A stretch of DNA of 64,000 bases from Naegleria gruberi (taxonomy: Eukaryota), in the NCBI GenBank assembly GCA_000004985.1, contig GG738874.1, one strand, 5' to 3'. Each line of letters begins with the position of its first letter. Positions within the stretch are counted from its first letter, which is position 1. The notes beneath the pieces were generated by a model. It was not told where the DNA came from, made no database searches, and worked only from the letters and a program-made list of their open reading frames with translations. Positions 9,308 through 60,439 of this stretch are shown here, one piece after another. A program made the position numbers and the translations under genes.

Positions 9308-10262
9308 TTATTTCTTGAGCTTTGAACTCACGTTTGGAAGAAGACTGAGAATAACATCAACTGTATTAATTTCAAGTCGTTAATATTATGAATTTTCAAA
9401 GATAATATATTACATACCCATTGGTTCGACTTCCTTCTTTGAAACAAGGTCAAATTCAAAGACAAATAAACAGAAATGCTAAAATAAACATGTAAATATA
9501 TGTGTCACAAACTATTTCACTTACTTTAAAAGCAGTATTCAAGTGAGCTTCTTCACCCAATTTCTTAACTTCTTCAAAGTGAGAGTGATAAATGTGAGCA
9601 TAAACTCTGAACAATCGTTTAAAGATTTGCTTGACTTCAGATTTAAAGTTTGTTGGGAAAGGAACATCTGGAGAAGGTGGGAACAATTGTTCATTGTTAA
9701 CCCTGGATTCAATCCAACCCATCAAAAATTCCATATATTGTGGAGCACTGACACGAATTGGCTTGGTAATGTTATCTTCAGGATTCATCCACAAATATTC
9801 ATATTCTACAAGTTGTGTGTAAACATTCAAAGAAGGAAATAATTATTACATACCAGCACCAGCACACATGACAGGGCATGAAGAAGCAGTACAGAATTCA
9901 GAAATACTTCCGTACAATAAATTGGTTGTATTGAAGAAATCAACAGCTAAATAGATCCATATTATGTATCAAATTTCATCATAAACACTTACTATGGACA
10001 GCTAGTAAATCGTAAATAACAAAAGATCATAATATTACTAGTACTTACCCAACCATTCGTTCAATTCTTCACCTTGTGGGAGTTTAACTGCTTGGCTCAA
10101 ATCACCACTTCCAAGAGTAGCTGTGTTAGAATAAATTTTGTTATTTGACACAATTCAATTAATGATCTTACCTTTAGCTGCTTTGTGTAATTCCTTTCTC
10201 TTTCCTCCGTGAGATTTCTTTGGACGAAAAGTGTTGCTATTCTTGTTTCCGCTATGATTGTA
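9308..10262 (-). CDS. MOB1: MOB1 kinase activator (Mps-one-binder), 6 exons with micro-introns; 5' start codon not located
   Basis: Translated exons match MOB1 end to end. Exon A reads …[25 protein letters not shown]. Exon 2 [24 protein letters not shown] spans about 10047–10124. Exon 3 [31 protein letters not shown] spans about 9846–9950. Exon 4, [94 protein letters not shown], spans about 9531–9806. Exon 5 [20 protein letters not shown] spans about 9424–9486. The terminal exon ends at TAA at 9308. Donors are GTAAGT/GTATGT. No in-frame ATG lies upstream of exon A (a TGA is in frame), so a 5' micro-exon is probably missing from my model. Confidence 0.8.
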
Positions 10263-27909: not shown

Positions 27910-28987
27910 TTATTTTTTGCTTGTTATTATAATTTTACATAATCTTGCCAAGAGTGCTGTAAGTTGAAGAGGTGTATCAACACCATCACTTATCCTTAAA
28001 TGACAATCACCAATCTCTTTGATAAATTGTAATTGAGCATATTCAGGCATTTGGACAGCTCCACTTCTAACAACTTTGGAAAGAGTAGAAATTACATCTT
28101 GAGAACTGTATCCCTCACCCATTAATTTAGTAAGCTCTTTTTGAGAACTCATTAAATCACCTTGAATACATGATCCAATAATTGTTTGAATAGCAACTGG
28201 ATGAGGTTGATCACAAACTTTGAAAACATTAGTGGCATTTACAATTCCAAAACCTTGATAGGTAGCTTGTAAACTATTAATTGCATTTCTCATGTCACCG
28301 TCTGAAGTATAGAGAATTGATTCCAAACCATCCTCTGTTTTTTGGACATGTTCTAATTCACAAATAACAATTAATCTGGTCAAGAGTTCAGCATCTGTCA
28401 GCCTCTTATATCTGACGAGAGCACATCTTGATTGAATTGGTTCAATAATTTTAGAGCTATCATTGCAAGCAAGAGCAAATCTAGTTGTTGAAGAATAAAT
28501 TTCCATAATACGTCTCATAGCTTGTTGAGCAGCTGATGTCATTGAATCAGCTTCATCCAAAATAACTATTTTGTGTCTATTTGGTGGAAGATTAACTTTC
28601 TTTTGAGCAAATTGTTTAATTTTGTTTCTCACAACATCAAGTGTTCTTTCATCAGAAGCGTTCAATTCTAAAACAGCTTCTTTATATACTTCCTTTCCCA
28701 ATAATGATCTAGCTAAACACATTATACTCGTTGTTTTACCAGTACCTATTATAAATCAATGGTGTGATCATCACAACTCCTATTTAATAAATTAAAATTA
28801 AAAACCTACCTGGTGGTCCAGACAAAATCAGATTCGGCATATTACCTTCCTCAGCAATAACTCTAAGTCTCATGACAGCCTCTTCGTTTCCGACAATATC
28901 ATCCATATCAATGGGACGATATCTTTCAACCCAAGGTCTGTCCATTTCTGTTGGCACACCTGAAGAAGAAGAATTTGATGCAATCAT
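27910..28987 (-). CDS. RFC2: replication factor C small subunit (RFC2/RFC4 family AAA+ clamp-loader subunit), 2 exons (28808–28987, 27910–28747)
   Basis: Exon 1 is [60 protein letters not shown]. An intron (G|GTAGGT…TAATAG) joins the Walker A motif to [20 protein letters not shown]-box-like DEADSM, SRC (SRCALVRY) and sensor-2 motifs are present. Confidence 0.85.
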
Positions 28988-31264: not shown

Positions 31265-33988
31265 ATGGAGCAACAACCTCAAATGCCACCATCAGCAAAT
31301 GGCATCAATCAGCAAGTCAAACCACACCCTTCTCAAACACAACATATATCCCCAAGTGTCAATGGAGGTGTGATGGATGGTTTACCACCGGGATCAGGTC
31401 AAGCTTTTGTTCAACCAGCACACCCTCACGTCCATTATCATCATGTTGATCCAAATATGCAAAGAAAACAAGTGATCCCTCCACAAGTAATAACCCAAAC
31501 AGGAACACAAATGCCATCTTACTATTATCCACAACAACCATATTATGCTGTACCTGGACAACCATATGGTATGTCACCACAATCATTTCCATATGCACCT
31601 TATGGTTATCAATATCCATATGGTGCACAAACAGCATATCCACCATATCCACACCAAGGACACCAACCTCATACAGTTCCTCCTATCCCTAATCAACCTC
31701 AAGTTACACAAGTTGTTGCTAAACCTGCAACACCATCAACCACTCCTAAACAGAAAAAAAAGAAATCTAAACCTGTTAACCAATCTAATGCTATTTTCCC
31801 TAGTCAATCTAAATCGATATGTCCAACTGATTCATTCAATGTTGGAAGAAAGAATGAAATTCTCTATTTGGTGGAGGGGTTTACAATGGATAGAGTTTTA
31901 CAAAATATTAATGTGCATATCCAATCAGGAAATGAGGTCACTATATCAGAAAAGCAAGTTTTGAAAATAGATATTTCATCCCTGGAAGGAAAGGCCCTCA
32001 AAATTCAAATTTATATTTGTCAGCTCAATGTGGACAAAATTCAAGACACAACAATACCATTACATTTATTTATGGAATATCCAGTCAATAGTGAAGAATT
32101 AGAATTCCAAGATTTATCGTTTACTTACCAACCAAATCTCTCCAACGCAAGATCTCTCTATTTTTTGAGATTTGTCCTTTTGGAAACTGTGGATAAGGTT
32201 GATAAGGTTGTAAATTTCTGTGACAGCTGTAATTTTATGATAGTATCTCCAAGTAACAAGAAGAAGAAGAGTACTTCTTCACAACCAACACCTACAATTC
32301 AGCACAATACTACTATACCGCCTGCTACTTCGACAACACCAACACTTCCTTCTCTCCCTCAAAATAATGTTTCATCCTTAACAAAACCCCCATCTAAGGG
32401 AGGTGAGGCCCCAACTGTAGAATTCTTGAAGCGATTAATTTCCACAGCGCCTAAAAAAGAACATTTGAGCCATTGGAATAATTTCATGGTTACTCTTGAT
32501 CAATTGAATGTGTATGATGGAAACTTTTTAAAGAAAGCTGAGGACATTTCTGACAGCATCAAGAGGGGAGGAAGATTCTCTGTATATCCTTGCATTGAGC
32601 AATGCTGCCCTTCTTTTGGACCAATCAGAGGAGGAATACAAGTTAGCATTAACGTGAAAGATTTAGATGTTTATGATGAAGATGATTTATCAATTTTTAT
32701 TGATGATATCAAGATTTCAAAGAAGGATATCACTTCTATACGACCAACTAAAATAGAATTTTATTTACCTGCACTGAAAGGATCACGTATTCCAGGCCAA
32801 GTAGATGTTTCTATTTCTGTAGATAATGGATTTGAATGCTATTCTCATGTATTGTACAATTCTTTTGAATACGTCCTTGATGAGGAATTTGAAAAGAGGA
32901 AGGGTACTATTCCTATGAAGGAAAGATCAGCTACTGGTCTTGTACAAGTTGTTACTATCAAGCCAATCAATGGTACAGCAGAAACTAATGAAGAAGAATA
33001 CGGAGATATCAACGAAAAAATGGATATCTATAATGGAGAATCTTGTCAATACAGTTCATGTATCCACTTTGAACGTGGATATTTGGATAGCTCAAAGTTA
33101 GATCCAAAACAAAGGTTCATGTGGGTTCTTCGCAGAGCTGATTCTGAGAGTCTCTATGGTTCTCAAGTTGCTAATGAAGATCACGCAGGTGTAATATTGA
33201 GAGGTGAAGCGATACTTAACAAGACAAAGATGGCAGACATTTTGGAAATGTGTTTTGAAATTGATAGAAGAATATCAAGTGAAAAGCTTGGAGTTGCAAT
33301 GAGTTTGCAACTTTTTGATAGAGAGACAAAGAAATACCTGTATACATCTAAGGCACTTCACATTCTTACCAGACCACCAAAGCCAGTCCAATACAGCAGT
33401 TTCAATGAAGACGAACGTGTTCTTCAACTTTTAGATAAGATCAAAACAAGAAAGAGAAGACGTGGCAGAAATGCTATTGCCTTTGATCCTAACTTGAACT
33501 CCCTAGGCCAGCCAATGACACATGCACTCTGCCTTTCAGATAATGAAGTTGAAATTCAAAAATCATTCCAACAATTCCATTTGGAAGTGAATGACCAATT
33601 TTCCAGAAGTCCTTTCCACTTGGCTTTTGCTGCAGGAAATTTGAATGCTGTAAAATTCTTTATGGAAAAGATTGCAGTCTCTCCTCACATTTATTTATTC
33701 CAGAGAGATTGTTATAATCAAACACCTTTCCATCTTGCGTTCAAGTTTTACAGGACTAAATTCCTGGTTGAGTGTTGCGCATTCCTTAAAGAAAAACTTG
33801 ATAAGTCAACAAATAGGAATGAAAATTCTCAAAATGTTGATATCTCTCCAACTGTCCAACAGAAACAAGATAAAAAGAGAAAAACACCTTCATCATCCAA
33901 TGAAACAACCAAACGAACCAAAGTTGAAGTCATCAGTTCCTCTGACGATGAGGAAGAAACCAGTCTCCACCTGCAAGATGATGAATAA
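31265..33988 (+). CDS. IPT/TIG-domain + ankyrin-repeat protein with prion-like Q/P/Y-rich N-terminus (SPT23/MGA2- or CAMTA-like architecture, no TM anchor)
   Basis: 907-aa ORF. The N-terminal 150 aa are rich in P/Q/Y. The central IPT/TIG-like beta-sandwich is IRGGIQVSINVKDLDVYDEDDLSIFIDDIKISKKDITSIRPTKIEFYLPALKGSRIPGQVDVSISVDNG. The C-terminal ankyrin-like repeats are SPFHLAFAAGNLNAVKFFMEK…TPFHLAFKFYRTKFLVECC, and the tail is acidic. Confidence 0.5.
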   Translation: MEQQPQMPPSANGINQQVKPHPSQTQHISPSVNGGVMDGLPPGSGQAFVQPAHPHVHYHHVDPNMQRKQVIPPQVITQTGTQMPSYYYPQQPYYAVPGQPYGMSPQSFPYAPYGYQYPYGAQTAYPPYPHQGHQPHTVPPIPNQPQVTQVVAKPATPSTTPKQKKKKSKPVNQSNAIFPSQSKSICPTDSFNVGRKNEILYLVEGFTMDRVLQNINVHIQSGNEVTISEKQVLKIDISSLEGKALKIQIYICQLNVDKIQDTTIPLHLFMEYPVNSEELEFQDLSFTYQPNLSNARSLYFLRFVLLETVDKVDKVVNFCDSCNFMIVSPSNKKKKSTSSQPTPTIQHNTTIPPATSTTPTLPSLPQNNVSSLTKPPSKGGEAPTVEFLKRLISTAPKKEHLSHWNNFMVTLDQLNVYDGNFLKKAEDISDSIKRGGRFSVYPCIEQCCPSFGPIRGGIQVSINVKDLDVYDEDDLSIFIDDIKISKKDITSIRPTKIEFYLPALKGSRIPGQVDVSISVDNGFECYSHVLYNSFEYVLDEEFEKRKGTIPMKERSATGLVQVVTIKPINGTAETNEEEYGDINEKMDIYNGESCQYSSCIHFERGYLDSSKLDPKQRFMWVLRRADSESLYGSQVANEDHAGVILRGEAILNKTKMADILEMCFEIDRRISSEKLGVAMSLQLFDRETKKYLYTSKALHILTRPPKPVQYSSFNEDERVLQLLDKIKTRKRRRGRNAIAFDPNLNSLGQPMTHALCLSDNEVEIQKSFQQFHLEVNDQFSRSPFHLAFAAGNLNAVKFFMEKIAVSPHIYLFQRDCYNQTPFHLAFKFYRTKFLVECCAFLKEKLDKSTNRNENSQNVDISPTVQQKQDKKRKTPSSSNETTKRTKVEVISSSDDEEETSLHLQDDE

Positions 33989-38035: not shown

Positions 38036-38420
38036 TTCGTGATGATATTTATCCAGAACAGCAAAGGTACGGGAGTTTTAGTGGACAGGTTAGCAGCATT
38101 CTTATTCTTCATGTATAACACCGATTCACGAGAAGATGATAGTAGTTTGTATTTTTTAAAATATGCCAGGTTTTGAGATAATGGTGGGCTTAGAATTTAA
38201 CGAAAATGGTTTGCCTGTTGTTTGCCTTCTTGATGTGTTTTGAAGCACTACAATTTCCTTTTTGCTTAATTTTATCTCAAAACGCGGCATTAATAAGCTT
38301 GTTCAAATGAACTTGTCGGGCTATAAAGGATAATAAATACTATGAGATGTGTTTACTGTGTGAGGTGAGGTTAATTCTATTTACATGACTATAATTGTGC
38401 GTGCCTAGGATGATGAAGTT

Positions 38421-39940
38421 TTAATTCTTAGTTTTCTTTTTTGATGAGGATTGTTGGTCTTTAGTGGATGGCTTTTTCCTCTTTTTTGGATCGTTCTCTC
38501 CTTGTACTGCTTGTTGTTGGGAGGAACTTTGTTGAGGTGGAATTGAGGATTGTTGCTGCGGAGGGACTGTAGGTTGATGCTGGTGTGAATGATGATGTGT
38601 TCGTTGGTGTGTATTGTTTGGATTATTTGGAGGAATTGGTTGCTGAGCATTAATGGGAGCCTGATTTTGAACTGGACGATCTGCATGAATGGTTTGATCA
38701 GGATAATTGTATTGTCTTTTTTCAAAACAGCTATTCCAATAATTATTTTTCATTTTCTTTTTAAAATATACTTACTAGGAATAATTCTTATTCTGTTCAA
38801 AGAGTCGATGTTTAAGGGCTTCAGATGCTGTTATTCTTTTTGATGGATCATAACACAATAGTTGTTTCAATAAATCCATCTCTGGTGAGTCAGGTGGTAG
38901 CTCTGTATGATTTTCCAAATTTGGTGTATATTTTGGTATAGTTCCAATCATTTGATAAAAATCCAAATCCTTAATTGTTGGCCAGTCTGCCTCTGTTGGA
39001 GTTCCAAGAACTGAAAATATTTTCTCCAATTGATCTCTTTGAAATTGTTCCTTATTGTTCTCTCTGCCTTCAAATATTGGTTTGGTAGTAATGAGCTCAT
39101 TAAAAATACATCCCAAACTCCAAATATCCACAGCTGGAGTGTAATGCTTAGCTCCAAGTAATAATTCAGGAGCTCTAATACATAGAATATTAATATTAAT
39201 ATCGAGTATCACATGAACACATACCTATACCAAATGGTGACAACAGGTCCATCATCTGCCAATTTCCTGAGTGGATCTTTAAATACACGAGCCAATCCAA
39301 AGTCAGCAATTTTTATAACACCTCTGTCATTACCTTCATCATGTATCAATATGTTTGCAGGTTTCTTTTCAAAATAAGTGTAAACTTCATTAATATAACT
39401 TACCAAATCTCTGTGTATCACCTAATTGAGATTAATAGAATATTCCACATTCTAACTTACCCATGCTTTGTGTAAATAATCCAATCCACATAGCATTTGA
39501 TACAATATTGACCTCACAACTCCTTTATCCAATTTAGGGTGTAGTCGTTTGTTATTCATATCCGTAATTTGTTTCTTATGATAATGCAATAATTTCTCCA
39601 AATCCAATTTACAATAAGGTGTTACCATGTAGAACAACCCATCAGATTTATCCAAAACAATATCTTTAACTTTTAGAATGTTGGGATGATCCAATTCCTT
39701 CAATAACTATAAAATTTAATCCAAATTGCCAACAACTGTTTTAACACTTACATTGATTTCTCTACAGATCGAGAAGGGAATACCTTCACTCTCTCTTGCC
39801 AATTTTAATTTGAATGATTTGATGGCCACTCTGTGACTTGTTGGAATTTCTTTTATATTTGATTAGTAACGAGATCCGATCGGAAATACCTACCTCTGGC
39901 CAATTTTACAATCTAACCCCATCATTAATATATTAAACAT
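38421..39940 (-). CDS. CDK8: cyclin-dependent kinase 8 (Mediator kinase module), 7 exons: 39895–39940, 39752–39837, 39461–39706, 39404–39421, 39225–39364, 38776–39178, 38421–38730
   Basis: The CDK8-specific signature is [18 protein letters not shown] (human SMSACREIALLRELKHPNV). HRDL|KPANIL is split by a 39-nt in-frame GTAAGT…AAAAG intron. The activation segment [35 protein letters not shown]|[12 protein letters not shown] matches human [47 protein letters not shown]. The C-terminus is Q/P-rich. Introns are 38–57 nt, and the track shows the pieces as separate ORFs. The first coding exon and glycine loop are not fully resolved. Confidence 0.8.
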
Positions 39941-40198
39941 TTAACTGATTTTACGTACACCATCTGTTAGCAAAAATTATTACAACAATAACATCGGAAC
40001 ACTCTACTTACAAGCTCCTTCACCGATTCTATATCACAATAAAATTATCAATTTAATTATCAAAACACATACTTTCCAACCAACTCATAACGTTGATCCA
40101 ATGTTTTATACTTTTTAAATGTTTTGTCTTTCAACCGACTTGTCATTTTTTTTTGATTAAATGTAACGGAAATTTTGTTGTTTTGACAAAATTGGTTT

Positions 40199-45400: not shown

Positions 45401-47590
45401 ACAAAACTCTTTGCTTATCCATACTATTTTGAAGTGAAGAAATTGTTTTTGTCAGAGAATCATTAATATCTCTAACTCTATTCAACTCTTTCATACTATA
45501 ATCCCTTTCCATAGAAGTGCTTTGATTACTTTCCTTTAAAAATTCAACTTCAGAAGTTAAACGAGCAACACTAGAGTGGAGAGTTGTGATCTTATCATTC
45601 TTGAAAGCAATTTCATCTTGGAGAGCCTTCTTCTCTCTAGCAACTTCTTGTTGAAGCTCTCTAAAGTCTTTCAAGTTCATGAATTCTCTGTTTACATCTT
45701 GTGAAGCATTGGAAGATTTTTGGACAGGTTCTGGAGTTGAAGAGGATGTTGCACTCTTTTCTTCCAACAGTGATTTAAGAATATCTCTTTGTTTGATAAG
45801 AGCTTGAGTTTTTTCTTCTTGGCGTTTGCTTTCTCGTTTTAATTCCTCAACCTGTTTGAGAGCTTCAAGAATCTTTTCTTGGAAGTCTGCTGCCAATAGT
45901 TCTTGGGCATTCTTGGCTTCTTCTTCTTTTCTTGTGGCAAGATCTCTTATTGTGCCAAGGAGTTCTACATTTCTCTTTTGCAATTCATCAATATTATCAA
46001 AAGGTACTAATCTTTGAGTAATTACAGCATTAGCATCCATGTGAGAAGCAGATTCAACACTATAGTGATTTTCTCTCAATAAAGTTCTTACTTGTACAGA
46101 TAAATCTTCAGTAACTTTTTGAGCAGTAGTGAGAGACTTTTTAAGTTTATCCCTTTCGTTTCTAATGTCTATTAATTCGTCCTTCATAGATTGACATGTT
46201 TGAATGAGTTCTTGCTTTTGTTTTGTTAAAATAGTATATGAAGATCTAAGTTGTTCGTATTCCTCTCTCTGAGCTTGCATTATTGGAGCCTTTTCTTCTA
46301 AATCCTTTAATATTCCAGAAAGCACTTCATTTAATCTCTTGTTTTCATTTCTGGACTTTAGTAATTCATCACTAGTTTTTACAAACTTGGTGTAAATATC
46401 ACTAGGGCTAATACCTTGGTTAACTAGGGTTGATGCACGAAGTTGGGCATTTTGCTCCAAGTCGCGATTATGCTTGTTAATTTGTTCTTCCAATTGACGG
46501 ATTTTATCCTTTGATTGTCTTAGTTCTTGAGATATTTCTTCTCTTTCAGTTTCAAAGGTTTGATCCATTCTTTGTTTAGAATCCTTAAGTGTGGAAAGTT
46601 GTTTTTCAAGCTCTTTGATTTTATCTTCCAAATCCTCATGTCTATTTTTGTATAAATCGGATAACCTCTTTTCATTAGAAAGTTCCTCTTTTAACCTATC
46701 AATTTCTTCAAGGTGATTATTCTTACACTCTCTAATCTCGGTTATCTTTTGTTGGTACTTTTGTTGATATTCCTTGTTTGATTGTTCCAAAGAATTCAAT
46801 TTCTCAGTTAAACTAGTTATAGTTTCACTGTCTTTTGTTGCTTGTATTTGGAGGTCATTCAATTGAAGGATGTAATCCGATTTAAGCTTTGTATTTTGTT
46901 CTTGTTTTGATGAAAGCTCCGAGTTAAACCATTGATTTTGCTTTTCTAATGATTCCTTCTCTTGTTGTAGCTTCTCAATAGTAAACTTGAGAGGTAACAA
47001 AGATGAAGAAGTTTCTTGAAGCTTTTCCTCTAGTTCCTTTTTAGATTTAAAATGTTCAGTAATTTTTTGGTTAAGTGACTCGATATGTGCTGTATAGAAT
47101 ATACCAATCAATTAACTATTTAACATACAATTTAGATCATCAACTTCTTTAGTTTTCTTTTCTAATAGTGATGTTAATCTAGATTTTTCAATCTTTAGAT
47201 CTTCATTCTGGGTATTAGCTTGGTCCAACTCCATCCTTTGCTCGTGCCACCTCTTTTCCGCATCTTTAATTTGTTTTGTAAGATGGTCCAATTGTTCCTG
47301 GTAACTTTTGTTTTCGCTCTTGAAATGTTCAATCCTTTCCTTGAGAAGCTGACTATCTTCAAGTTTAGAATTTTCTTGTTGCTCAAATTTGTTCATCAGA
47401 GACTCGTTGGCGAGTCTGATTGTTTTAATTTCCTCTCTACATTCCAAAAGTTCATCGTCCTTTTTAGAAATATATTCTTGGGCCTTTTTAATAATTTCAA
47501 GAGGATTATTGCCGATTTGCTCTAGCTCCTCAGCTGTGAGAAAAGAAAGTTTGGATACTTCATCAGCAAGCGAGCGATCAACTATCGACA
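42486..47590 (-). CDS. TPR: nuclear-pore basket protein TPR/Mlp1-like giant coiled-coil protein (about 1700 aa), 2 exons joined by a 39-nt intron (47090–47128)
   Basis: Segments match human TPR: KAPIMQAQREEYEQLRSSYTILTKQKQEL vs [28 protein letters not shown], and ISFIRREKEMLRSKLAISEQEL vs [22 protein letters not shown]. The N-terminal exon (47129–47590, MSIVDRSLADE…) is joined through CTAAATT|GTATGT…TATACAG|CACAT, which restores the frame. The C-terminus is an (KKEEER)n tract followed by an S/T-rich and acidic tail. Confidence 0.75.
42955..43190 (-). repeat. coding tandem repeat (about 15-nt unit, about 14 copies) encoding an (E-E-R-K-K)n / ER-K-rich single-alpha-helix-like tract in the TPR-like protein
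   Basis: The plus strand shows a reiterated ttcttcc(t)tctttcg unit. The protein reads KKEEERKKEEERKKEEERKKEEERKKEEERKKEEATRREEERKKEEERKREEEARKKEEERKKEELRKKDEEKK. Confidence 0.75.
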
Positions 47591-52288: not shown

Positions 52289-54266
52289 CTATTGTTGTTT
52301 GGAGTGTGTGGATTCTTCAGTTGGATCGGTAAGACATGGATTATTAACAATCTTTCTTCCATTCTTAACCAACAAGAAATAAATAATAACAGTAAGAGCA
52401 ATGTAAATTAAGAGATTAAGAAGACCACCTAAAAATTATAAATTTCGTTTCATTAATATATAGTGCACAACTATGGAAATTTACATACCCGATGTAGTTG
52501 CCTTTGAAGCACTGGCAGCAACCATGAATAAGGAAACAAAGAATCCATATTTAAGAACTGAGAAGAAGACATTGGATTGATTTTCTTGTTCAAATGGAGA
52601 CTTGGCATTGGATTTAACAGCATATTTACCCAAAAGCAAGTTGACAGAGTCTTGCTTGATACCATCCTTAAAGTTATTCAAATAATATCTAGTAGCAGAG
52701 TTGATACCATCGTTCAAGAGACCGTTGAGTGTTCTCTTTCCTGTTCTGGTAAAATCTGCCTTAATAGCTCCAGTACCAGCATAAATGAAACTGATTCTAT
52801 CACCATTATCAGCCCAAACTATTAATCAAATATATATCTGGGTTAATTTTAACTAGAAAACTTACTGTTTTGGAATGTATAGTTCAATGACTTTTGATCA
52901 GCAACTTTTTGACTAGATGGCATAACATTCAAACTAGTCAATTGAGTAGCCAAAACAATCTTGGCAAAAATGCTTTGACAAACGTTGGTTCTATCCAAAC
53001 AGTCAATACAATTAGAACGAATAATACCAGTTTGTTCTGAGAGAATTTGACCAGTTGAAACGTTCATTTGGAAATATCCATGTTGCTTCAAAGATGGTTC
53101 TACTTGATCAGTCAATTCAGAAATAGCAGAATAGTTCATTGATTTACACTTATTGTGGAAATCAAAAGCAATATACTTGAGGTCAGAGTTCTTTGGATAT
53201 GACTTGTATTGAACTTCGTATTCATCAGCCAAAACCTTTTCAGATCCCTTTTGATTGATCAAGTTGACAATAGCAATATTTTGATAACGTGGCAAAACTC
53301 CATCAAAGTGCTTTTCGAATGACTTTCCTTCCTTCTTCAAATAAGTTGGTGGCTTGTATTGAATGTTGGCCTTTTGAGTCCAAAGCAATGGAATACTACC
53401 ACGAAGTTGCATGAATGAAATAAAGTTATTGTTATATTCAATGATTTGTTCAGTTTCAACAAAGTTAGCAACGTTACCCAAGAAATCAGCACCTCTCATA
53501 TTGTATCTGGTACCAACTCTCTTGCATCCCAATCTAGACAAAATAGTCAAATTGAAAGATTTATCTTCAACTTTAGCTTCCTTGGTTTCAACAACTAAAG
53601 ATCAAAATTATAAATCCACACACACAAAATTTCACAACTTACATCCACGAATAGTTGGAACAAACCATCCTTGAGCAGCTTCCTTTCCAGTGAAATCTCT
53701 AGTTAAGAAACCATTCCACAAGAAATGATCATCGGACTTATATTATATTAAAATCCTCTAATAATTCCTTCAGAGAAACCTACCTTTTCACCAACAACAT
53801 TCAAAGTTGAAGCTTGTTTAAACCAATTTTGAGTGGAAACAGTAGCATCATAAGAGTAAGAGAAATAGAAAGTTCCATCATTCAAAATTGTTGTCAAGAG
53901 TTCCAAATATCTACTTTCATCGGCTTGGTGTTGAGTAGGAACAGGCTTTTGATAATATGGAATGATCTTAACTTCGCCAATAGAATTAATTGTATGAACC
54001 TTATCAATAGTGGCAACAGGAGTACTTGATTTAACAACAACCAAATAAAAACCAGCCAACAATTCAATAGATCCCAAAACTGCACTCAATTTTTGAGAAG
54101 AAATCTTCTTTACTGATGATGCATCAAAATCAGCTCCGAGTGATTTAATTGAATTATTTGAACGATTAATCTCAAGTGATGATGCTTCACCTTCCCTATT
54201 CTTTCCTTGGAGAATAAAACTTTCAGCAGTTTCGATCAATTCAATTTGTTGGTAACAAGTTTTCAT
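52289..54266 (-). CDS. SAC1: phosphoinositide phosphatase SAC1, 5 exons: 53784–54266, 53643–53736, 52856–53594, 52489–52817, 52289–52429
   Basis: An N-terminal Sac domain (exon 1) and …[12 protein letters not shown]… (exon 2) are present. The catalytic CX5R(T/S) motif [16 protein letters not shown] is in exon 3. Exon 4 reads [49 protein letters not shown] (yeast [28 protein letters not shown]…). Exon 5 holds the C-terminal TM segment. Intron phases check out, donors are GTAAGT/GTAGGT/GTATGT, and introns are 38–59 nt. Confidence 0.8.
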
Positions 54267-59337: not shown

Positions 59338-60439
59338 TTAGTTTTTGAAACAATTGAATGAGGAAGCAAGAGCATCATTTCTTCCCAAATTTCCTAATTG
59401 GAAATTATCTTCAATGGTTCTCAAAAGAGAGAAATGGTTATAAGTATTCTTGTCAACTCCTCCAGGTTGAACCATATCACCAATAGCAACAGCATAGATA
59501 TGATTACGGAACATGTAGTCATCTTCATCGAATGTGATGAAAATAAGAGTGCCTTTCATGAATTTTGGATTATTCAATTTAGGTGGCAACCATTGAGCTA
59601 AGTAACTGTACAAATGTTAAATGATTGAACTAGCGGTTGTCAAACTTACTTGTTGGCATAATCGAGTCCAGTATTGTGAGCATCATTATCAATATTTGGA
59701 GTGTAATACATCAAGTTTGGTAAATTTCCAGAAGCAATATCCAAATCCAATTGATCAGAACTGACAATATTCTTACATCTATTTGGATTATTTCTAATAT
59801 TATCAAAGGTCATGAATGGATTGTGTTTTCTATAATACTTCTTATCAGTGCTATATTGAGCAATGAAGCAATTTCCAGTTCCAGAATTTTCCTTTGGATA
59901 ATTTTCTTGATATGATTTCCAAGTCAATCCCTTTAAATTATTTCAGAATGTGAAATATTCCACATCAAAACAACAACATTCGAATAAAAAACTTCAATCA
60001 ATATACAAACCTTTGCTTCCAACAAATCAACAATAGTTGTGGCATTAACATTGACATTACTGTCAGTATTATGTTTAAAATAATCACCAGCAATTTGTGA
60101 TAAATAATTTGGTTGAGAAGGATGAGTAACTCCATAATATTCAGACAACAAGGTTCCAATCTTGGTAGCCACTTGACGGAAATATTCATGCATCATGGTC
60201 AATTCTAATGGTTGATTTTCAAAATTAACAACAAGAATTCTTTCAAAAGTACCAGGCTTTGTTCCATTAGTAGCCTTCACTGATGATGATGATGAAGCAG
60301 CAGCAGAGGCTCCTCTCATCTGAACAGCTCCGTCCACTACCATCATCATCATCATTGCAACCATCAAACAACCAATGATCGCAAAAATAAGTGATTGACG
60401 CATTTTTGGGATGTTTTGCATTTTTTTTTGAATCTTCAT
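59338..60439 (-). CDS. secreted phosphoesterase-family protein (acid phosphatase / non-haemolytic phospholipase C family, HPSQPNY signature), 3 exons: 60011–60439, 59650–59930, 59338–59605
   Basis: A signal peptide (LIFAIIGCLMVAMMMMMVVDGA) is present. The family signature is GVTHPSQPNYLSQIAGDYF, with downstream …KHNPFMTFDNI… and …FITFDEDD…. Introns of 80 and 44 nt carry GTTTGT/GTAAGT donors and phases are consistent. Confidence 0.65.

Follow-up and report, generated by a model that had tools for sequence, protein, structure and literature searches.

The DNA analyzed here is a 64,000-nucleotide (nt) stretch of the genome of Naegleria gruberi NEG-M (contig GG738874.1), AT-rich with a content of guanine plus cytosine (GC) of about 33%, and hereafter called the window. 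Exact matches to N. gruberi NEG-M proteins were obtained for six of its long open reading frames. On its minus strand, positions 38421 to 40146 hold a predicted gene for a kinase of the CDK8 family, which was reconstructed as an intact gene of ten exons and nine introns starting with an ATG at 40146. In gene order, the exons measure 74, 17, 5, 19, 98, 246, 18, 140, 399 and 310 nt and the introns 44, 48, 46, 44, 45, 39, 39, 50 and 45 nt, all nine introns being of the form GTANGT...(T/C/A)AG. The product of the ten-exon model has 441 amino acids (aa), an open frame, and is collinear with its orthologues. An initial annotation, made from the DNA letters alone, had described a CDK8 gene rich in micro-introns, and in this it was right. 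However, its count of seven exons separated by introns of 38–57 nt gave way to ten exons and nine introns of 39–50 nt, the start codon was located 206 nt upstream of the proposed limit at 39940, and the supposed 57-nt intron was found to measure 44 nt, with its AAG acceptor at 39850 instead of 39837.

Gene models were compared by mapping the introns of eight homologous genes on one alignment, for which annotated proteins were threaded exactly through their loci or models were built by hand. The set comprised the window gene, its orthologues in Naegleria lovaniensis (P0001) and at loci L008 and L009, two Willaertia genes (P0002 and P0003), an Acrasis gene and a paralogue from Naegleria fowleri (P0006). 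A further contig, L007, represents a sister strain that shares 99% identity with the window. The elements of the gene are listed below; 3n denotes a length that is a multiple of three.

40073-40146, minus strand: exon 1, 74 nt, ATG at 40146, encoding MTSRLKDKTFKKYKTLDQRYELVG(K); N-terminus collinear with Willaertia, L008 and L009 (MTSRLKEK...)
40029-40072, minus strand: intron 1, 44 nt, phase 2, GTATGT..TAG; N. gruberi lineage only
40012-40028, minus strand: exon 2, 17-nt micro-exon, (K)IGEGA(Y)
39964-40011, minus strand: intron 2, 48 nt, phase 1, 3n with stops, GTAAGT..CAG; N. gruberi lineage only
39959-39963, minus strand: exon 3, 5-nt micro-exon ATGGT; completes the tyrosine and gives the third glycine of GEGAYG
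39913-39958, minus strand: intron 3, 46 nt, phase 0, GTACGT..TAG; position common to N. lovaniensis, L008 and L009
39894-39912, minus strand: exon 4, 19-nt micro-exon, IVKLAR(E); 19-nt counterpart in N. lovaniensis, L008 and L009
39850-39893, minus strand: intron 4, 44 nt, phase 1, GTAGGT..AAG; position conserved
39752-39849, minus strand: exon 5, 98 nt, ending ...ICREIN; equal length in the three orthologues
39707-39751, minus strand: intron 5, 45 nt, phase 0, 3n with stops, REIN|LL
39461-39706, minus strand: exon 6, 246 nt
39422-39460, minus strand: intron 6, 39 nt, phase 0, 3n with TAG stops, KAW|VIHRDL; begins GTA AGT TAG
39404-39421, minus strand: exon 7, 18-nt micro-exon, VIHRDL
39365-39403, minus strand: intron 7, 39 nt, phase 0, 3n, no in-frame stop, GTAAGT..AAG, HRDL|KPANIL
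39225-39364, minus strand: exon 8, 140 nt, KPANIL...DFG...TIWY(R)
39175-39224, minus strand: intron 8, 50 nt, phase 2; position common to L009 and Willaertia P0002
38776-39174, minus strand: exon 9, 399 nt, C-lobe; 3 of 3 single-nucleotide differences between the strains synonymous
38731-38775, minus strand: intron 9, 45 nt, phase 2, 3n with a stop; position conserved
38421-38730, minus strand: exon 10, 310 nt, tail rich in glutamine, proline and histidine, basic C-terminus; stop codon TAA at 38421-38423

The position of intron 5 is the most widely conserved, being found in Willaertia and Acrasis as well. Intron 6 measures 41 nt in L007, and its position is also occupied in the N. fowleri paralogue; the initial annotation had placed this intron exactly and had reported its stop. 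Inside intron 8 lies an AT-rich repeat or palindrome (ATATTAATATTAATAT), and a 6-nt deletion (ATATTA) that distinguishes L007 in this intron resembles slippage of the microsatellite type.

Assignment to the CDK8 family

The translated model matched the Pfam family Pkinase (PF00069, E=4.6e-67) over the full profile (positions 1–263 of 263), with GxGxxG, VAIK, HRDLKPxN, DFG and APE all present. Human CDK8 was the best match in the PDB (271 bits, E=1.5e-79), above CDK1, CDK2 and CDK3 (229–234 bits, E about 1e-66 to 3e-68). Among database proteins the closest relatives were the CDK8s of heteroloboseans (N. lovaniensis with 76% identity, then Willaertia and Acrasis) followed by plant CDKE-1, and the named top matches were CDK8 or CDKE-1. 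Alignment to human CDK8 revealed an αC motif of the CDK8 type (S-x-S-A-C-R-E-I instead of PSTAIRE), with PFSICREI corresponding to human SMSACREI within the paired stretch gisMSACREIALLREL, and a long T-loop lacking the activating threonine, with no serine or threonine between DFG and PVV. In exon 10, the motif CFEKRxxxYPDQ has aligned counterparts in human CDK8 and the orthologues. On this evidence the gene is assigned to the CDK8 (Mediator-type) family of cyclin-dependent kinases.

In a neighbour-joining tree, the window gene grouped with L009, L008 and N. lovaniensis P0001 (98% bootstrap), as sister to the pair of Willaertia genes. The N. gruberi protein that is labelled CDK8 (P0007, 340 aa, encoded on another scaffold) paired instead with N. 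fowleri P0006 (100% bootstrap), and this second clade has diverged further than the first. By its sequences, Naegleria has two CDK8 paralogues, and the window gene is one of them: a second CDK8-type kinase of N. gruberi, less divergent than the one currently bearing the name. Willaertia has a duplicated CDK8 pair of its own.

A predicted exon of five nucleotides in the glycine loop

Exon 3, ATGGT, provides the sole canonical GT–AG path that holds both the reading frame and the GxGxxG motif, here GEGAYG. The relatives N. lovaniensis, L008, L009 and Willaertia read IGEGAYG(I/V)V(R/K)xA...VA(V/I)K, and the ten-exon model keeps the canonical spacing of 17 residues from the third glycine to the lysine of VAIK. 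Extension of exon 2 or of exon 4 runs immediately into a stop codon. In L009, the same GTACGT donor stands directly after GAYG, and the next exon is again the one of 19 nt. Exons of 11, 19 and 98 nt make up the region in N. lovaniensis and L008, where the upstream intron lies 6 nt further 5' than in N. gruberi, which gives the 11-nt exon; L009 lacks this upstream intron. The 5-nt form of the exon was seen, among the genes compared, in N. gruberi and L007 only.

Two other arrangements of the 5' end are in frame in the window strain, namely that of the initial annotation, which read IGQ[S/R]HRVAIK, and a variant in which the 5-nt exon is skipped by use of a CAAG acceptor. Both are ruled out by the GEGAYGIV of the orthologues and by substitution C39898T of L007 in exon 4, which is synonymous (GCC to GCT) in the frame of the ten-exon model and generates TAG in each of the other two. 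The initial annotation was therefore correct in suspecting a missing micro-exon at the glycine loop, where three upstream exons (74, 17 and 5 nt) were recovered, and the comparison with orthologues that it had recommended is what resolved the 5' exons and the loop, through the GEGAYG of the relatives; its peptide, however, is out of frame.

Combined, these observations make the 5-nt exon well supported in silico. A productive mRNA would need three consecutive micro-exons, of 17, 5 and 19 nt, for the glycine loop. If true, constitutive use of so small an exon, with an intron of less than 50 nt on either side, would be an extreme case for splicing by intron definition; it offers a stress test for gene finders and for the splicing of two adjacent introns shorter than 50 nt.

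Phase-1 introns were located at three adjacent codons of the glycine loop, at GE|G in N. lovaniensis and L008, at G|A in Willaertia P0002 and at A|Y in N. gruberi. Phase-0 introns likewise occupy the neighbouring positions KAW|VIH and WIM|HRD. Such closely spaced sites suggest intron sliding or repeated insertion at hotspots.

Selective maintenance of the gene

The window and L007 differ by five substitutions plus indels over the gene of about 1.7 kb. All four exonic substitutions are synonymous, and the indels are confined to introns, with 2 nt gained in intron 6 and 6 nt lost in intron 8 of L007, length changes that directly support the assignment of these two segments as introns. The gene appears to be selectively maintained, with its exons under purifying selection.

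Existence of the other N. gruberi paralogue, P0007, raises the question of whether the window gene is a redundant copy in decay, whose odd structure would be functionally meaningless. In the protein collection queried, neither the exact 441-aa product nor any of ten alternative models, versions retaining intron 7 included, found a match, which could be read the same way; nor did homology searches return an N. gruberi match to the locus protein, the word-indexed search used having been shown to be non-exhaustive. Against a pseudogene stand a frame open across ten exons, the integrity of every catalytic motif, the restriction of indels to introns and the synonymous nature of all four exonic differences. 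Identity to the N. lovaniensis orthologue is moreover 76%, and of the two paralogue clades the protein sits in the one that has diverged less. Decay is thus extremely unlikely.

Nature and distribution of intron 7

The segment at 39365-39403 was what had drawn attention to the locus. As the initial annotation had described, it measures 39 nt, is in phase 0, has no in-frame stop, and separates HRDL from KPANIL in the catalytic loop, so that mechanical open reading frame (ORF) finding reads through it; the gene caller applied to the metagenome contig of the sister strain did the same. Its donor, GTAAGT, is the commonest of the region (10 of 19 local introns), its AAG acceptor is shared by 3 of the 19, and its size falls within the local class, as GTANGT introns of the window measure 39–102 nt. 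Exons average a GC fraction of 0.36, whereas the segment has 0.21, a level to which just 1.4% of exon windows descend. In all homologues the loop is unbroken, as HRDLKPANIL or HRDLKPSNIL, and removal of the segment restores collinearity with them. The uninterrupted loop of every homologue, together with consensus boundaries, size and GC content, identifies the segment as an intron. Judged by these features it is an ordinary spliceosomal GT–AG intron of the U2 type, presumably removed constitutively.

That the 39 nt might instead be constitutively coding in the N. gruberi lineage, as a 13-residue insertion in the catalytic loop with no intron at all, was considered in light of the open frame, an exon-like score of in-frame codon usage and the ease with which gene callers of the prokaryotic style pass through it. 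Such an insertion would part the catalytic aspartate from the lysine and asparagine of HRDLKPxN, which is unbroken in every homologue, in a gene under purifying selection over the rest of its length. The complete GTAAGT...AAG boundaries and an intron-typical GC content, below that of 98.6% of exon windows, also speak against coding, which is accordingly held to be highly improbable.

The intron was absent from all seven homologous genes of other species (three orthologues, two Willaertia genes, Acrasis and the N. fowleri paralogue). It was found in the window and in L007 only, with identical sequence in both. By parsimony, intron 7 was probably gained recently on the N. gruberi branch, the alternative being loss of multiple introns in other lineages. 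Two routes of origin were tried and rejected. An origin of the lineage-specific introns from introners or repeats found no support in pairwise comparisons, where 2 of 36 intron pairs reached p<0.05, which is the chance level, nor in the window, where no other copies were present. Tandem duplication of an AGGT-containing segment was discarded as well, since no resemblance was seen between introns 1, 2, 6 and 7 and the exons on either side of them. With intron positions differing strongly among close Naegleria lineages, the gene lends itself to work on how heteroloboseans gain and lose introns.

The stop-free state of intron 7 compared with chance

The frequency expected for 3n introns without stops was estimated from a null model built on the 19 introns of the window, using the actual length, phase and donor of each. 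Stop-free combinations of intron and frame made up 12% for these 19 introns, and the probability of being stop-free for an intron with the length, phase and donor of intron 7 was 0.12. The acceptor had a strong influence, as 39-nt phase-0 introns were stop-free in 38% of cases with AAG and never with TAG. For the CDK8 gene, 0.5–0.56 3n stop-free introns were expected and one was observed, the probability of at least one being about 0.4. The 3n stop-free state of intron 7 is a chance property, arising mainly from phase 0 and from an AAG instead of a TAG acceptor.

Of the 43 introns mapped in the eight homologous genes, three, intron 7 among them, were 3n and stop-free, and their positions are unrelated. 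The N. lovaniensis gene has one of 81 nt (L001 3867-3947, FYM|VTPYCK), which has an exon-like GC fraction of 0.37, is absent in the close relative L008 and may be a doubtful annotation; another is a 51-nt intron of Willaertia P0003 (L003 2820-2870) with a GC fraction of 0.18. Matches to GTANGT..AG that are 3n and stop-free also occur within long ORFs of the window (31569-31634, plus strand; 45230-45195 and 10964-10896, minus strand), and were set aside as chance matches on account of their exon-like GC content.

Elsewhere in the window, ten more candidate micro-introns of the GTANGT...AG form (39–102 nt) connect parts of ORFs belonging to other genes:

59606-59649, minus strand: candidate micro-intron
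53737-53783, minus strand: candidate micro-intron
53595-53642, minus strand: candidate micro-intron
52819-52865, minus strand: candidate micro-intron
52429-52488, minus strand: candidate micro-intron
47090-47128, minus strand: candidate micro-intron
28746-28809, minus strand: candidate micro-intron
9947-10048, minus strand: candidate micro-intron
9806-9853, minus strand: candidate micro-intron
9479-9524, minus strand: candidate micro-intron

Most genes of the window have 0–3 introns, and nine in one gene of 1.7 kb are unusual for the region.

Splicing noise or splicing switch

Insertion of residues between the catalytic aspartate and the lysine and asparagine of HRDLKPxN should abolish kinase activity, as expected from established kinase biochemistry. 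In productive mRNA, removal of intron 7 would restore the invariant HRDLKPANIL loop. Occasional retention would add 13 residues in frame and would be invisible to nonsense-mediated decay; the resulting protein is probably catalytically dead, and retention of this kind would be splicing noise and not a designed switch. It is likely, with good confidence, that the gene is an intact and maintained CDK8 paralogue whose intron 7 is ordinary, probably specific to the lineage, and 3n and stop-free by chance, with retention amounting to noise.

The initial annotation had called an on/off switch of the Mediator kinase at the level of splicing plausible. In its full form, this explanation holds that retention of intron 7 is regulated and yields a kinase-dead CDK8, hidden from nonsense-mediated decay, that tunes or switches off the Mediator kinase, perhaps as a dominant-negative partner of cyclin C. 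It would account for a 3n stop-free intron placed within the catalytic loop and having an acceptor of the minority type, and for the identity of intron 7 in two strains, although these differ by only five substitutions, plus indels, over the whole gene. Absence of the intron from all homologues of other species excludes a switch conserved throughout the genus, so that any switch would have to be a recent novelty of N. gruberi. The chance-level frequency of the 3n stop-free state and the occurrence of similar introns at unrelated positions in homologues do not favour it either, the junction searches reported below gave it no transcript support, and a second CDK8 paralogue exists. Regulated retention is therefore quite unlikely. 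It would matter if true, but the evidence favours an ordinary, recently acquired intron.

A more elaborate version combines recent gain with weak splicing of intron 7, such that the retained, dead CDK8 would bind cyclin C and Mediator and would serve as a lineage-specific dominant-negative control, for instance during the amoeba-to-flagellate transition, in the same gene that carries a constitutive 5-nt exon between introns of less than 50 nt. This conjunction is very unlikely.

Several points weigh against regarding intron 7 as ordinary, lineage-specific and a source of mere noise. The log-odds of codon usage for the 39 nt in frame are exon-like and do not discriminate intron from exon. The AAG acceptor, being of the minority type, could mean inefficient splicing. 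As 3n stop-free introns tend to be purged in those genomes with short introns that have been studied (PMC5014332), each survivor is a mild anomaly. The choice between gain and loss rests on parsimony and on a node with 54% bootstrap. Finally, no exact match to the exon 7–8 junction or to the exon 2–3–4 junction was found in public metagenome and metatranscriptome contigs. RNA-seq of N. gruberi has been produced by Grau-Bove et al. (PRJEB23822, PMC6142364).

Of greater note than intron 7 are the 5-nt exon and the fast turnover of intron positions.

Genomic neighbourhood and reference annotation

Only 52 nt (40147-40198, minus strand) lie between the CDK8 start codon and the stop codon of the upstream gene on the same strand, which encodes an acidic protein of 716 aa (EFC43359). 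This gap leaves almost no space for a 3' untranslated region, a promoter and a 5' untranslated region. The neighbours bear accessions EFC43357 (at 37298..) and EFC43359 (at 40199..), a numbering that implies one reference model, EFC43358/D2VIH3, at the locus (38036-40198, minus strand). The literature searched for splicing of Naegleria CDK8 yielded no description, and no paper citing the locus accession was found.

In N. lovaniensis, P0001 is annotated as a fusion of ubiquitin and kinase (L001 3001-3400), which is probably an artefact. At this locus, a ubiquitin-like ORF ends ...RIQGGW* just beyond the annotated donor, and the final stretch of the annotated 145-nt intron contains the kinase's own ATG (MTSRLKEK). 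In L008, with the same arrangement, the ubiquitin-like sequence and the kinase are two separate genes. In L009, the CDK8 orthologue is preceded, at a distance of about 0.9 kb, by an ORF with a Cyclin_C domain (407-949), and a longin/synaptobrevin gene occupies the space between the two; a gene of the latter kind adjoins CDK8 in N. lovaniensis and L008 too, but not obviously in the N. gruberi window.

Comparison with known systems

The Mediator kinase CDK8 binds cyclin C and joins Med12 and Med13 in the kinase module. The N. gruberi protein resembles CDK8 and CDK19 of animals, Ssn3/Srb10 of yeast and CDKE;1 of plants in its kinase domain, αC motif and T-loop devoid of threonine, as well as in the C-terminal CF..(x)YP motif and the tail rich in glutamine and proline. 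It differs from them in being one of two Naegleria paralogues. Med13 has been reported in N. gruberi (PMC3702460).

Intron 7 can be set beside two classes of introns whose retention preserves the frame. It is like exitrons in being 3n and stop-free, in having coding flanks and in keeping the frame upon retention. Exitrons, which are alternatively spliced stretches inside coding exons, have an exon-like composition and derive from ancestral coding sequence. By contrast, the composition of intron 7 is intron-like (GC 0.21) and the segment matches no residues in any homologue. It also resembles the short 3n stop-free introns of Paramecium, other ciliates and Yarrowia, in which retained sequence is translated through (PMC5014332, PMC2911113). 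According to these sources (PMC5014332, citing Jaillon 2008; PMC2911113), genomes with short introns generally deplete 3n introns and are enriched for in-frame stops in them, which places intron 7 in a known and mildly disfavoured class. Whereas the class in ciliates and Yarrowia is statistically depleted, intron 7 is a single case at the frequency expected free of selection, the 19 introns of the window being too few to reveal a depletion.

Ultra-short micro-exons (15 nt or less) are often misannotated, as documented in plants (PMC8831610), and exons of a single nucleotide have been described (PMC4674806, PMC12940212). The predicted ATGGT exon shares with them conserved encoded residues, necessity for the frame and canonical flanking sites. 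What sets it apart is its host, a heterolobosean protist, and the very small size of the introns on either side (48 and 46 nt).

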